Below, in pieces: positions 15,248 through 33,498 of a stretch of DNA of 39,345 nucleotides (position 1 is its first letter; every line of letters begins with the position of its first letter). Below the pieces are notes generated by a model, which ran no database searches, was not told the DNA's origin, and saw nothing but the letters and a program-made list of their open reading frames with translations. A program made the translations under genes and the position numbers. Source of the stretch: a virus; UHGV virus genome UHGV-1828728, one strand, 5' to 3'.

Positions 15248-15321
15248 CCTTCTTGATTGATTGGATGCGGAATACAAACCCGCTCTTTTGTGCAGCCTGG
15301 CTCCTTGCCAGGCTTTTTTTT
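15248..15321 (+). ncRNA. candidate small RNA (promoter plus intrinsic terminator, no ORF)
   Basis: Extended -10 TGcTATACT (15239-15247), about 45 nt containing GATTGATTGG, then hairpin AGCCTGGC-TCCTT-GCCAGGCT (15294-15314) and T8. No coding potential on + strand. Existence as an RNA is inference. Confidence 0.25.
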
Positions 15322-15631
15322 ATTTCATCATGGAAGCTGTTAATGCTTTGGACCTTGCTGAACTGATTGAGAGGGCTTTGTCAACGTGCCCCAAAAATTC
15401 GCCAAACTCAGACATCACTTTAGCAAAACCGCGCCGTGCTTCTTCCTCGGTGGCATTCATCACGAAATGTTCAGCACTACGCATACTTCTGACAGGGAAC
15501 GCAACGGATATTGAGTCAATATCAGGCATTCTATCGCTCAGCTTTACAGTGACAATGACGGCTGGCGACTGAATATTAGTGCTCACTGACAGCACTACAT
15601 ATTTTCCGTCGATGTTGAAATTCTTTCTCAT
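15320..15631 (-). CDS. cra: Cra-like protein (cre-associated)
   Basis: 103-aa ORF between cre and ref with ATG and GGTGA SD; C1 operator-like site just upstream. Name by synteny. Confidence 0.6.
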   Translation of the reverse strand: MRKNFNIDGKYVVLSVSTNIQSPAVIVTVKLSDRMPDIDSISVAFPVRSMRSAEHFVMNATEEEARRGFAKVMSEFGEFLGHVDKALSISSARSKALTASMMK

Positions 15632-15647
15632 ATGTCACCATAAATAT

Positions 15648-15664
15648 CAAAGAATTAGAGCAAT
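15648..15664 (-). promoter_or_regulatory. C1 operator-like site upstream of cra
   Basis: Core ATTGCTCTAAT (reverse complement of 15654-15664); 13/17 to consensus. Confidence 0.45.
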
Positions 15665-15681
15665 CATTTACGCGTTAATGG

Positions 15682-16713
15682 CTAATCGCCATCTTCCAGC
15701 AGGCGCACCATTGCCCCTGTTTCACTATCCAGGTTACGGATATAGTTCATGACAATATTTACGTTGGTCCAGCCACCAGCTTGCATGATCTCCGGTATTG
15801 AAACTCCGGCGCGGGCCATATCTCGCGCGGCTCCGACACGGGCACTGTGTCCAGACCAGGCCAGGTACCTCTGACCAGAGTCATCCTTAGCCCCGTAAAT
15901 CAATCGGTGAGTTGCTTCAAAAATCCCTTCCAGGGCGCGAGTTGATAGCTGGCTGGTGGATGATGGCGAGGCAACACCATTTTTTCTGACCCGGCAAAAC
16001 AAGTAGTTATTCGGATCATCAGCCACACCAGAGACGGAAATCCATCGCTCGACCAGTTTAGTTACCCCCAGGCTAAGTGCCTTCTCTACACCTGCGGTGC
16101 TAACCAGCGTTTTCGTTCTGCCAATATGGATTAACATTCTCCCACCGTCAGTACGTGAGATATCTTTAACCCTGATCCTGGCAATTTCGGCTATACGTAA
16201 CAGGGTGTTATAAGCAATCCCCAGAAATGCCAGATTCCGTATATCCTGGCAGCGATCGCTATTTCCCATGAGTGAACGAACCTGGTCGAAATCAGTGCGT
16301 TCGAACGCCAGCGCCTGTTTTGCACGCTCACCGGCATCAACGTTTTCTTTTCGGATCCGTCGCATGACCAGTGAAACAGCATTGCTGTCACTTGGTCGTG
16401 GCAGCCCGGACCGACGATGAAGCATATTTAGCTGGCCCAAATGTTGCTGGATAGTTTTCACTGCCAGACCGCGCGCCTGAAGATATAGAAGATAATCGCG
16501 AACATCTTCAGGTTCTGCGGGAAACCATTTCCGGTTATTCAACTTGCACCATGCCGCCCATGACCGGCAAACGGACAGAAGCATTTTCCAGGTATGCTCA
16601 GAAAACGCCTGGCGATCCCTGAACATGTCCATCAGGTTCTTGCGAACCTCATCACTCGTTGCATCGACCGGTAATGCAGGCAAATTTTGGTGTACGGTCA
16701 GTAAATTGGACAT
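15682..16713 (-). CDS. cre: Cre tyrosine recombinase
   Basis: 343-aa product beginning MSNLLTVHQNLPALPVDATSDEVRKNLMDMFRDRQAFSEHTWKMLLSVCRSWAAWCKLNNRKWFPAEPEDVRDYLLYLQARGLAVKTIQQHLGQLNMLHRRSGLPRPSDSNAVSLVMRRIRKENVDAGERAKQALAFERTDFDQVRSLM and ending NIVMNYIRNLDSETGAMVRLLEDGD; matches canonical Cre from memory apart from a few substitutions. Confidence 0.97.
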   Translation of the reverse strand: MSNLLTVHQNLPALPVDATSDEVRKNLMDMFRDRQAFSEHTWKMLLSVCRSWAAWCKLNNRKWFPAEPEDVRDYLLYLQARGLAVKTIQQHLGQLNMLHRRSGLPRPSDSNAVSLVMRRIRKENVDAGERAKQALAFERTDFDQVRSLMGNSDRCQDIRNLAFLGIAYNTLLRIAEIARIRVKDISRTDGGRMLIHIGRTKTLVSTAGVEKALSLGVTKLVERWISVSGVADDPNNYLFCRVRKNGVASPSSTSQLSTRALEGIFEATHRLIYGAKDDSGQRYLAWSGHSARVGAARDMARAGVSIPEIMQAGGWTNVNIVMNYIRNLDSETGAMVRLLEDGD

Positions 16714-16720
16714 TTAACAC

Positions 16721-16942
16721 TCAGATAATGGTTTTAAGTAAAGTGTACAGGATCGGCTCTGCCTTTACCTGTTTATGGTTCTCGTCATAGAAACGCCAGC
16801 GACCGCGCGTGCGTTCTATTTTCTCTTCACCGCGCGATAATGACAGTTGACAACTATCACGATCAAACCCTTTTGCCCGCCAGTAACCACGGTTTTTCTC
16901 AAGCTCAATATGAGTGGACACTTTAGCAGCTGAATATCCCAT
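16721..16942 (-). CDS. hypothetical 73-aa protein between loxP and cre
   Basis: ATG with GAGGTG SD at 5-nt spacing; stop 8 nt before the cre ATG; lies in what is normally treated as the cre promoter region. Confidence 0.45.
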   Translation of the reverse strand: MGYSAAKVSTHIELEKNRGYWRAKGFDRDSCQLSLSRGEEKIERTRGRWRFYDENHKQVKAEPILYTLLKTII

Positions 16943-31471: not shown

Positions 31472-31558
31472 TTACCCATGCGCGACGATGCCGCCAAAAG
31501 TGATAGAGAACAGCCAGAAATAGATCGCGGCCATAATGATTTTGAATGCCGTGTTCAT
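31472..31558 (-). CDS. 28-aa hydrophobic peptide, translationally coupled to the downstream gene
   Basis: MNTAFKIIMAAIYFWLFSITFGGIVAHG; ATG with AGGAG SD at 8 nt; stop 9 nt before the next ATG; below the ORF-track length cut-off. Confidence 0.35.
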   Translation of the reverse strand: MNTAFKIIMAAIYFWLFSITFGGIVAHG

Positions 31559-31586
31559 ATTTTCAGCTCCTGTGATTGATTGGATA

Positions 31587-31616
31587 CATGCCGCGCCTTG
31601 CGGCATGTTTTTATTT
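31587..31616 (+). terminator. hairpin plus T-tract element in the leader of the peptide operon
   Basis: Stem CATGCCGC/GCGGCATG with 5-nt loop followed by TTTTTATTTT on the + strand; no + strand gene upstream, so its role is unclear. Confidence 0.35.
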
Positions 31617-31640
31617 TCACTTTTTCTGTTTTAATAATCA

Positions 31641-31657
31641 AGATTTATTAGAGCAAT
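31641..31657 (-). promoter_or_regulatory. C1 operator upstream of the peptide/242-aa operon
   Basis: Reverse complement ATTGCTCTAATAAATCT, 16/17 to consensus. Confidence 0.5.
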
Positions 31658-32163
31658 TATTGTTGATGGAGAAGCGCGTTTTCATACTCCCTGACCATTA
31701 ACGTAAGTACGCCGTGACTCCTGAAAACACGCGCCACGTCAATCTTATCTTCCAGCGCGAACGCAATTTTACTTAGACCAATTTTCTTCAGGAGATCAAT
31801 CTTTGCTGGACCGTCATTTCTGTCATCGGTGGCAGGACGCATAGATAGCAAAGGCTCAGCCCCATTTGTTACGTGCTTACGCAACCAGGCTCGTGTTTTA
31901 TCCCTGGCTATCTCACAGCGCCCGGTTACAAACCAGAGGGTGTAAATGCCGGACAACTGGCGCACCATATCAATAACTGGAGTGATGGGAGCATCAGTGT
32001 CACAGGCAAGGTTAAACTCGTTCCAGTGCTCTGTTAATGCACCTTTGCCAGGTGGTGGAAGTAAATGCAGCCTGTCTTCCGTTGCCTCTGATATCGTCCC
32101 ATCAATATCTACTATGACGATGTACGGACGTTCCTGGTGTGCGTGTTTATTGAAAATACTCAA
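31657..32163 (-). CDS. HAD-superfamily phosphatase-like protein
   Basis: 168 aa with IVIVDIDGTIS (HAD motif I DxDGT) near the N-terminus; TTG start with GAGGAGGG SD. Confidence 0.6.
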   Translation of the reverse strand: MSIFNKHAHQERPYIVIVDIDGTISEATEDRLHLLPPPGKGALTEHWNEFNLACDTDAPITPVIDMVRQLSGIYTLWFVTGRCEIARDKTRAWLRKHVTNGAEPLLSMRPATDDRNDGPAKIDLLKKIGLSKIAFALEDKIDVARVFRSHGVLTLMVREYENALLHQQ

Positions 32164-32235
32164 ATGCCCTCCTCATTGGACGAAAAAAATGCTGGTGGGC
32201 GCACTCCACCAGCATTAAATGTGACACTGTAACTA

Positions 32236-33498
32236 TCAGCGAACGTAAATAGTGCCGCCGTTCTCTTTTTCCCATGCATCGCTACGTGCATAGCAAACAT
32301 CGAGAAGTCTTCTTGCCGCAGTTTCCTCTAAACCCAATTCAACAACCAACTGCTCATGACGGCGGGTAACTACATCAAATAGACTATGCAGCCCTTTATT
32401 GGCCAGTTCATCAATGAATTCCGGTTCGAACGGCAGCTCTGCCTCTGCCAACATAACCTCTTGCGCCCACTCAACTCGACGGACCAGTTCCGGGCGGCGG
32501 CTTTCCATCTCTTTACAGATCAATTCATGGAAGAACTCTACCCAACCTTCCGGCTGGAACTCGCGGAAAATGGCCAACGGCTGGAAGTTTGGCATCAACC
32601 ATTCGTTGATCCGGATATCAATGGCATAGCCCATGTCGCAGCAGAACTGATAAGCAAAGTCCAGCTTAGAAACGATATAAGGACGCTCGTTATTGAACTC
32701 TTTAGGCGATGAGATCCCATAAGCCAGGAGGCGCGGGAAGAAGGAGATTTGCCCTAACGTCGGATGAAGTTTGCTTGCAGGGAAACGGCGCTCAGTAATG
32801 CCATACATTTCCTTCTTGAGCGTCGCAAATTTGGCATTCTCATTAACCAGCGCGGTAACCTCTGCTTTTTTATTAGCAAATGCCACGCGCGCTTCGCTTG
32901 CATCTTTAATAGTTTTTTTGAGCTGTTGGTTAAGGTCGGCGACCTGCTTACGCAGTTCCTGTCGCTCGCTTTTAGCTTTGTTATAGCGTTTCTCAAGGTT
33001 AAAAGGATCAAGTTTCATGATCTCTTTATATTGAGATTTTAGCGTTGAAATCTGTGAGTTCCGCAGTTCAACCATCGCGGTCATTTCATTGAGTTTTGTT
33101 TCCAGCTCAATGCTTATACGTTCGGCATTATCAGCACGCTGGTTGGCGTCATGCGTCGCATCGTCGATCGCGTCCTGTTGCTGGCGTTTCAAATGTTCAA
33201 TTTGCAGCTGAAGCTCTTCAATTTCTTTACCCTTCAGACCGAGATCCAACTGCATATTTTCAGCTGCATCTACCAGGGAGTTATGGCTATCAGCTTCTGC
33301 GTTATAAACATCAATAAGCTGTGCGTGAAGCATCTCCGCTGACTGAACCGCATTATCAAAAAAACGTGCTGTGAGGTCATCACAACTAACGCGGCGTTGC
33401 GCGGCCCGGATGTTCTGGATAATGGCCGGGATACCGGCATTCAGGACATCAGGGATAGATACATTTTCGATTGATTGGTTTTGTGCTGAAGTGCTCAT
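32236..33498 (-). CDS. hypothetical protein with central coiled coil
   Basis: 420-aa ORF; start codon follows the upstream stop by 1 nt; contains CCAATCAATC within codons 7-10. Confidence 0.6.
   Translation of the reverse strand: MSTSAQNQSIENVSIPDVLNAGIPAIIQNIRAAQRRVSCDDLTARFFDNAVQSAEMLHAQLIDVYNAEADSHNSLVDAAENMQLDLGLKGKEIEELQLQIEHLKRQQQDAIDDATHDANQRADNAERISIELETKLNEMTAMVELRNSQISTLKSQYKEIMKLDPFNLEKRYNKAKSERQELRKQVADLNQQLKKTIKDASEARVAFANKKAEVTALVNENAKFATLKKEMYGITERRFPASKLHPTLGQISFFPRLLAYGISSPKEFNNERPYIVSKLDFAYQFCCDMGYAIDIRINEWLMPNFQPLAIFREFQPEGWVEFFHELICKEMESRRPELVRRVEWAQEVMLAEAELPFEPEFIDELANKGLHSLFDVVTRRHEQLVVELGLEETAARRLLDVCYARSDAWEKENGGTIYVR

Follow-up and report, generated by a model that had tools for sequence, protein, structure and literature searches.

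Why should a 10-nucleotide (nt) word recur at dispersed places in a phage genome, always in the same orientation? The question is raised by virus genome UHGV-1828728, represented here by a stretch of 39,345 nt (hereafter ‘the window’, meaning the whole stretch of DNA that was analysed), in which the word GATTGATTGG occurs four times. The window belongs to a P1-like phage-plasmid, with vB_EcoM-813R1 and SJ46 as its nearest genomes and ~95% identity to P1, the window minus strand corresponding to the P1 + strand. We propose that one copy of the word, at 15255, marks the 5′ end of a small RNA gene and that the other three are sites at which this RNA would pair with phage mRNAs. The full mechanism, a trans-acting small RNA with a 5′ seed that pairs with several phage mRNAs, seems to us reasonably likely; the existence of the transcription unit at 15255, taken alone, we would put forward with somewhat greater confidence.

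A rare word at four sites

The four exact copies lie at 15255–15264, 16954–16963, 31574–31583 and 33469–33478, all on the + strand. A first-pass annotation of the sequence had reported these positions and considered so many copies in a single orientation to be rare by chance, and this was confirmed: 0.11 copies are expected, and four or more were found in 0/100 shuffles that preserved dinucleotide composition. Only nine 10-mers reach at least four copies in the window. Eight are parts of Chi (CCACCAGC) or the C1 operator (ATTAGAGCAAT), which leaves GATTGATTGG as the single other word; with its count confirmed, it therefore stands beside two known functional repeats. Likewise, the 10-mers present in at least four copies in both P1 and Cronobacter phage JK004 are nearly all C1-operator, Chi or RepA-iteron words, together with this motif. 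Identity of the motif with the C1 operator (ATTGCTCTAATAAATTT) or the late-promoter −22 box was considered and rejected, the 10-mer being a different word and none of the four P1 positions being so annotated.

P1 itself has the exact word at all four orthologous places, that is, at 186 (186–195, corresponding to window 16954), in the 5′ untranslated region (UTR) of cra-cre, where it touches the cra Shine-Dalgarno (SD) sequence; at 1885 (window 15255), in the c8-ref intergenic region; at 82472 (window 33469), in codons 7–10 of pmgS; and at 84367 (window 31574), between the C1-controlled pmgT promoters and pmgT. The P1 record, with 535 features, annotates the C4 RNA, the start of the kilA antisense RNA, a dicF-like region and three tRNAs; the 10-mer is not annotated. 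A fifth exact copy of CCAATCAATC exists in P1 (AF234172), on the minus strand at 73519–73528 and outside the region covered by the window. This copy runs antisense to the 3′ portion of dbn, ~175 nt downstream of gene 5, and may be a chance occurrence or a 3′-UTR site.

A predicted small RNA gene between c8 and ref

The copy at 15255 is set apart by its surroundings on the + strand. A predicted sigma-70 promoter occupies 15219–15247, with a −35-like TTTTCA (15219–15224), a 17-nt spacer, TG at 15239–15240 and TATACT at 15242–15247; in a promoter scan it scored 9/12 plus the TG of an extended −10 element (TGcTATACT). A 7-nt spacer, CCTTCTT (15248–15254), separates the −10 box from the predicted start, the motif's first G at 15255 being the first purine past this pyrimidine-only stretch. 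Across the loci compared, spacer length is fixed and its sequence is variable (CCTTCTT, CTTTCTT, CCTTTCT, CGTTCTT, CATTCGC and CATCCGC). From this start a small RNA of ~68 nt is predicted (15255–15322, + strand; P1 minus strand ~1894–1827), antisense to the c8-ref intergenic region. The exact motif copy (15255–15264) would form its 5′ seed, GAUUGAUUGG, after which minimum-free-energy structures place a weak first stem-loop (15263–15286) and a U-rich linker (15287–15293). An intrinsic terminator recovered by a terminator scan follows at 15294–15322, beginning 30 nt past the motif, with an 8-bp G+C-rich stem (15294–15314) and a tail of U8. The whole 68-nt RNA is predicted to fold into a free 5′ end, the small stem-loop, the linker and the terminator, with a free energy of −23.2 kcal/mol (z-score −3.2); the sequences of the first stem-loop are unrelated between the types of this RNA described below.

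The terminator is specific to the + strand. No T-run is present past the 15294–15314 hairpin on the minus strand, so the hairpin cannot terminate c8 in the sense direction, and there is no + strand protein-coding gene closely upstream of the terminator in P1, in JK004 or in Salmonella plasmid NZ_CP077703, a second diverged relative. Such an arrangement is uncommon. When whole genomes were scanned for an extended −10 element (at least 5/6 matches) followed within 30–150 nt by a strong terminator, two units were found in all of P1, counting both strands, and one in JK004, the 15255 unit being among them in both genomes; from the counts of the separate elements, ~0.1–0.15 such pairs would be expected per strand. 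The second P1 unit is the divergent, C1-controlled P2ref leader.

These features alter how the four copies are to be read. The first-pass annotation had taken them as equivalent targets at the 5′ ends of minus-strand genes, a placement that holds for 16954, 31574 and 33469; at 15255, by contrast, no start codon follows, and this copy is instead the predicted start of a regulatory RNA with promoter, seed and terminator all on the + strand. It had also described SD-like sequences directly after three of the copies. Two of these stand, AGAGGTG at cra and ACAGGAG at an open reading frame (ORF) of 28 amino acids, whereas the third, AGAAGGAG at 15255, is the complement of the promoter spacer; as an SD it was rejected, there being no start codon at SD distance on the minus strand, and the stretch varies among P1-type contigs. 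The hairpins with T-tracts that had been noted on the + strand beside 15255 and 31574 are both present, the latter being considered below.

Predicted pairing sites on three phage mRNAs

The other three copies read CCAAUCAAUC on mRNAs transcribed from the minus strand, those of cra, the 28-amino-acid ORF and pmgS. The first (16954–16963) is in the 5′ UTR of cra-cre (cra 16721–16942; cre 15682–16713), at −21 to −12 from the cra AUG, and directly abuts the SD AGAGGUG (16953–16947), from which 4 nt lead to the cra ATG; this site was invariant in 89 loci comprising 29 haplotypes. Downstream of a C1 operator (31647–31657), the second (31574–31583) is set between a 5′ hairpin (31608–31586) and the SD ACAGGAG (31573–31567), which is followed after 8 nt by the ATG of the 28-amino-acid hydrophobic ORF (31558–31472) upstream of pmgT. 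The third (33469–33478) lies within codons 7–10, at +20 to +29, of a 420-amino-acid gene, as had been claimed, and the gene is pmgS (32236–33498). In the predicted folds of all three target leaders the motif is unpaired, and a perfect 10-bp duplex between seed and target has a calculated energy of −12.2 kcal/mol.

The 28-amino-acid ORF (MNTAFKIIMAAIYFWLFSITFGGIVAHG; window 31472–31558, minus strand) has a good SD, lies between the C1-controlled pmgT promoters and pmgT, and is without annotation in P1. It has no Pfam or NCBIfam match, and orthologs are present in JK004 (gene_94) and the Salmonella plasmid.

A hairpin with a T-tract beside 31574 might suggest a second small RNA gene, a candidate that was rejected: no + strand promoter was found, the hairpin of the JK004 ortholog differs and has no antisense U-tract, and the T-run at 31574 arises as the complement of the sense promoter's A-rich −10/start region. 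Because the JK004 hairpin is without an antisense T-tract and no + strand promoter was found at this place, the structure is more likely a 5′-terminal hairpin of the mRNA than the terminator of a second RNA. The same two observations led us to reject a type I toxin-antitoxin locus here, the small hydrophobic ORF that such a locus would have being present.

Conservation in diverged relatives

P1-type genomes are 95–99% identical, too alike for conservation among them to be informative. Two diverged relatives were therefore retrieved without reference to the motif, phage JK004 through its Cre (80% amino acid identity) and Salmonella plasmid NZ_CP077703 through a BLAST search with the JK004 locus as query (80% nucleotide identity); the PmgS proteins of both are 69–75% identical to that of P1. 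Both keep the 15255 unit, past a c8-like gene, in the order TGaTATACT, 7 nt, GATTGATTGG, hairpin, ..GUGC and terminator, the last being AGCCCGGC-GAAA-GCTGGGCT with a U-rich tail. In place of CCTTCTT the relatives have the spacer CATTCGC, its sequence changed and its length kept, and the first hairpin is unrelated. Between types, one pair of the terminator stem has changed on both sides (U-A to C-G) and one has changed on one side only.

JK004 has the exact word six times, each time on its counterpart of the P1 + strand and never on the opposite one, and five of these copies are in 5′ leaders. One precedes the first gene of the cra cluster, one is at the RNA locus, and a third occupies codons 7–10 of pmgS; of the remaining three, one lies between the SD of the orthologous small membrane ORF and a hairpin unlike that of the window, one belongs to a cassette of operator, promoter, hairpin, motif and SD before a 50-amino-acid membrane protein, and one directly abuts the ref ATG. 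Four exact copies were counted in 40 kb of the Salmonella plasmid, together with a fifth at the small-ORF site, tCAATCAATC, with C1 changed to U, at which a G-U pair would still be possible; the motif is kept upstream of the plasmid's cra-cluster genes, with differing flanks. The conservation at orthologous positions that had been called for as a check is thus seen, P1 matching at 4/4 places and both relatives carrying exact or 9-of-10 copies. Across P1, JK004 and the Salmonella plasmid, 14/15 exact copies share the same orientation relative to the local gene.

Flanking bases differ at every site, and the block is exactly 10 nt long. When pmgS codons from the three genomes were aligned, the run of identity at the variable N-terminus was exactly CCAATCAATC, in an alignment where only 31% of codons for conserved residues match in every genome. 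At its 3′ edge the conserved block of the targets ends at the position that corresponds to the predicted first nucleotide of the RNA, the outcome expected from pairing with an RNA that starts there.

The more distant phage D6 has no copy of the motif; its PmgS is without the QSI codons and its gene order differs. D6 was considered as a test of covariation between seed and target and set aside, since, with no motif copies, it shows only co-absence.

The JK004 cassette before the membrane protein has no counterpart in the window. Found in JK004 (gene_104; L086 23245–23430) and in the Salmonella plasmid (L088 ~36500–36650), it runs from a C1 operator through a promoter, a 5′ hairpin, CCAATCAATC and AAGGAA to the ATG of a protein of ~50 amino acids (MKDFAMPRQT...) that has a hydrophobic segment at its C-terminal end; the start annotated in JK004 probably lies 33 nt too far upstream.

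Sequence types and population variation

A scan of IMG/VR distinguished four sequence types of the RNA locus, A to D, which share a common predicted architecture (fold z-scores −3.1 to −3.6 overall and −3.3 to −3.6 in three diverged types). Their first 10 nt are identical, the only such stretch before the linker and terminator, the next 25–30 nt being unalignable. Seed nt 1–7 (1–6 in type D) are predicted to be unpaired in all four types, with probabilities of 0.6–0.99. Some ~20/72 of the distinct sequence contexts returned by this pattern scan are chance matches. A second scan of IMG/VR, anchored on the terminator and hence unbiased for the seed, gave 116 loci, 111 of which had the exact −10 box, spacing and seed; a terminator-anchored scan of genome contigs yielded, among the matches listed, only P1-type E. 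coli contigs and random G+C-rich matches. A candidate ‘fifth type’ (L168) was rejected, as it lies inside a tail-fibre-like ORF and does not fold.

Departures from these types are few. Among rare variants of the RNA gene (L248, L250, L253 and L254), three combine a change of seed G10 to A with a change of the extended −10 TG to TA, and one has G10 to T; in L249 the 5′ half of the RNA gene is replaced by cloning-vector-like sequence. Variants at the small-ORF site (L004–L083) read CTAATCAATC, CCAGTCAATC and CAAATCAATC or have a 4-nt deletion, and two of the three point changes would keep G-U pairing with the seed. Types B–D, and not the P1 type, have an inverted repeat of 5–8 bp (GCGAATGA..TCATTCGC) bracketing the −10 box (L084 5650–5675; L088 20024–20049; L176), with compensatory changes between types (CGGATG/CATCCG and GCGAAC/GTTCGC).

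Relation to known regulatory RNAs

The 15255 RNA, as predicted, is undescribed and belongs to no curated family. Rfam models searched against the whole window at gathering thresholds gave no match; in a permissive search of 15180–15380 the best hits were to unrelated small RNA families far short of their thresholds, led by SorX at 22.6 bits against a gathering threshold of 46.6, and C4 was not matched. Pfam and NCBIfam models recognised only Ref among the neighbouring and target proteins, and nothing relevant emerged from literature searches on the 10-mer, on its RNA form or on small RNAs of P1.

Several known systems offer partial parallels. In E. coli, the constitutive small RNA IstR-1 silences tisB, which encodes a small membrane protein under LexA control. 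By analogy, the 15255 RNA would likewise have its own constitutive-looking promoter, pair within 5′ leaders and act on small hydrophobic ORFs held by a repressor, here C1; unlike IstR-1, which adjoins its single target, pairs over ~21 nt and acts at a ribosome standby site, it would use a 10-nt seed on at least three unlinked targets. In its predicted single-stranded, conserved 5′ end, variable body and Rho-independent terminator with U-tail it resembles the Hfq-dependent enterobacterial small RNAs of the RybB, OmrA/B and MicC type, as it does in the prediction that several mRNAs are targeted at or near the ribosome-binding site by a short perfect duplex. It differs from these in being encoded by a phage-plasmid and having its known complementary sites on the phage's own mRNAs, and is related to them neither in sequence nor in Rfam. 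The C4 (immI) and kilA antisense RNAs are regulatory RNAs of the same phage that also use short complementary boxes near a ribosome-binding site; C4, however, is processed from the leader of the operon that it controls and has two boxes of 7–8 nt, whereas the 15255 RNA has its own predicted promoter and terminator, a different sequence and dispersed targets. Prophage small RNAs of E. coli (DicF and those of enterohaemorrhagic strains) are similarly borne by mobile elements and have terminator-type 3′ ends, but act mainly on host core-genome mRNAs or host small RNAs, unlike the phage targets proposed here.

Other features of the window

The P2ref leader, recovered above as the second unit of extended −10 element and terminator, occupies 15078–15187 on the minus strand of the window, with a C1 operator (15187–15171), TGcTATAAT and then the terminator GGCGGCCATCAGGCCGCC with T8 (15103–15078). 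This ends 5 nt before the P1-type ref ATG (15072), with no SD visible, and ref of JK004 is likewise preceded by a terminator and T8. The unit may represent an attenuator or else a second small RNA that is divergent from the one at 15255. The longest ref ORF (14512–15177, minus strand, 221 amino acids) has its TTG start in this leader and is probably an artefact of ORF calling; the P1-type ATG gives 186 amino acids.

The Chi octamer is abundant on the + strand of the window (CCACCAGC, n = 24; GCTGGTGG, n = 15). The C1 operator core, ATTAGAGCAAT, is found at seven + strand and two minus-strand positions; one of these cores, at 15654–15664, lies in the interval separating cre from c8, for which the P1 record lists a promoter and no operator.

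Discussion

From the anatomy, rarity and conservation observed for these sites we infer transcription, pairing, the direction of regulation and any dependence on Hfq. The c8-ref intergenic region would encode an RNA of ~68 nt, transcribed from the extended −10 promoter, beginning with GAUUGAUUGG and ending in a U-tail at the intrinsic terminator. Its single-stranded 5′ end would serve as a seed for pairing with CCAAUCAAUC on phage mRNAs: immediately 5′ of the cra SD, for the cra-cre operon; immediately 5′ of the SD of the small membrane ORF that heads the pmgT transcript; and in the early coding region of pmgS. In relatives, pairing would take place also at the ref start codon and before another small membrane protein. 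Pairing beside a ribosome-binding site would most likely lower translation of the mRNA or make it less stable. Several of the targets are expressed from C1-controlled promoters and the promoter of the RNA looks constitutive, an arrangement in which leaky transcripts might be silenced in the lysogen and a threshold set on induction. The RNA could in this way back up the prophage repressor post-transcriptionally and restrain Cre and, in some clades, Ref. Taken across the P1 family, the idea that an invariant 10-nt 5′ seed unites cra-cre, ref (in some clades), pmgS and the C1-repressed small membrane proteins in one post-transcriptional regulon backing C1 has, in our estimation, the balance slightly in its favour.

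The first-pass annotation had offered two explanations, a translation-initiation element bound by a regulator or the target of an antisense RNA. An RNA target is favoured by the presence of the motif on the sense strand, its position at or near start regions and the exact 10-mer in diverged relatives; the part that fails is the equivalence of the copies as targets. Expression evidence from infection of a delta-hfq host by P1vir is mixed. Over-induction of pmgS and pap in that host gives weak support (bioRxiv 10.64898/2025.12.28.696737), while cra, cre, ref and pmgT were lower late in infection, contrary to what the proposal would lead one to expect (bioRxiv 10.64898/2025.12.28.696737). C4 was the sole P1 regulatory RNA known to the authors of that preprint (bioRxiv 10.64898/2025.12.28.696737).

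Like the lower late expression of these genes, a number of our own observations weigh against the proposal. The promoter and start point of the 15255 RNA are predictions from consensus, and the first stem-loop taken alone, compared with shuffles, gives z-scores of −0.3 to −2.4, which are not significant. In a duplex-energy scan with the first 20 nt, the G+C-rich hairpin part dominated and the pmgS site was not separable from background; this site, at +20 to +29, moreover lies beyond the region in which initiation is usually blocked directly. The scans recovered no clade whose seed differs, nor was covariation between seed and target found, and the four P1-type loci in which seed G10 has become A or T keep CCAATCAATC at cra, with no compensatory change. 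Orthologs of the 31574 site, that of the small ORF, vary in 6/76 P1-type loci, one by a slippage-type deletion of 4 nt (CAAT), so this site is not strictly constrained in the population. The inverted repeat of types B–D, finally, could be an operator of the RNA promoter or a hairpin in the sense mRNA.

Two other explanations keep RNA as the level of action. The 15255 RNA may be real and act only in cis, as antisense to c8 read-through or to the transcript of the ref leader (or, in relatives, to the 5′ UTR of whichever gene follows c8), with an unrelated reason for the conservation of the other 10-mers. The RNA unit is indeed perfectly complementary to the sense transcript over its whole length, cis-acting antisense RNAs are already annotated in P1 in the form of C4 and the kilA antisense RNA, and no covariation between seed and target was found. 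We nevertheless think it unlikely, for it does not account for the exact 10-mer, in sense orientation throughout, at three to five further mRNA start regions across three diverged clades, or for the invariance of only the first 10 nt of an RNA whose body has been replaced. Alternatively, CCAAUCAAUC might serve as the RNA operator of an RNA-binding protein, from phage or host, that represses or activates translation by binding beside the SD and in many cases near a hairpin, with the promoter and terminator at 15255 incidental. That the motif is specific to the sense strand, adjoins SDs and in several copies follows a 5′ hairpin fits this, as does the order in types B–D, where the RNA-locus copy is followed by the covarying hairpin in the sense mRNA. 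A candidate protein is lacking, however, Cra, C8, PmgR and others having no informative Pfam or NCBIfam matches; the hairpins are inconsistent in position and sequence between sites; and a conserved TGnTATACT at a fixed 7 nt, with a strand-specific terminator and no gene for it to terminate, would go unexplained. An operator of this kind is, in our judgement, rather improbable.

The word could instead act as DNA, as the site of an asymmetric DNA-binding protein that works as a roadblock or activator downstream of promoters, which would give P1 a third repeated control element, after the C1 operators and the late-promoter −22 boxes. It does rank with operators and iterons among the words that P1 and JK004 share as repeats, C1 operators are themselves asymmetric, and several copies are near C1-controlled promoters; but C1 operators occur both ways round, whereas 14/15 exact copies of the word keep one gene-relative orientation, a conserved copy lies inside a coding region, in codons 7–10, and the binding protein is neither known nor suggested by the data, so that we give this reading little credence. 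Least of all do we credit chance recurrence coupled with common descent. The word is A/T-rich and internally repetitive (CAAT-CAAT), ~30 10-mers reach five copies in a 94-kb genome, conservation among P1-type genomes of 95–99% identity says little, and the small-ORF site does vary, by what looks like slippage in one case. Yet the 10-mer is exact amid flanks that are unrelated between copies and between clades, all six JK004 copies are on one strand with none on the other and five in leaders, the identical run in pmgS ends precisely where the motif does, and coincidence of a copy with a promoter–terminator unit would be unexpected when only ~0.1–0.15 such units are expected per strand. Each of these explanations leaves something unaccounted for, either the dispersed, sense-strand conservation of exact length or the conserved promoter–terminator unit.

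P1 is among the most thoroughly annotated of phages and the source of Cre-lox, and its GenBank record of 535 features has no entry at the 15255 locus. If the proposal of a trans-acting small RNA is true, there would be a new layer of control for the maintenance of lysogeny in a large family of phage-plasmids that includes many carriers of resistance genes.

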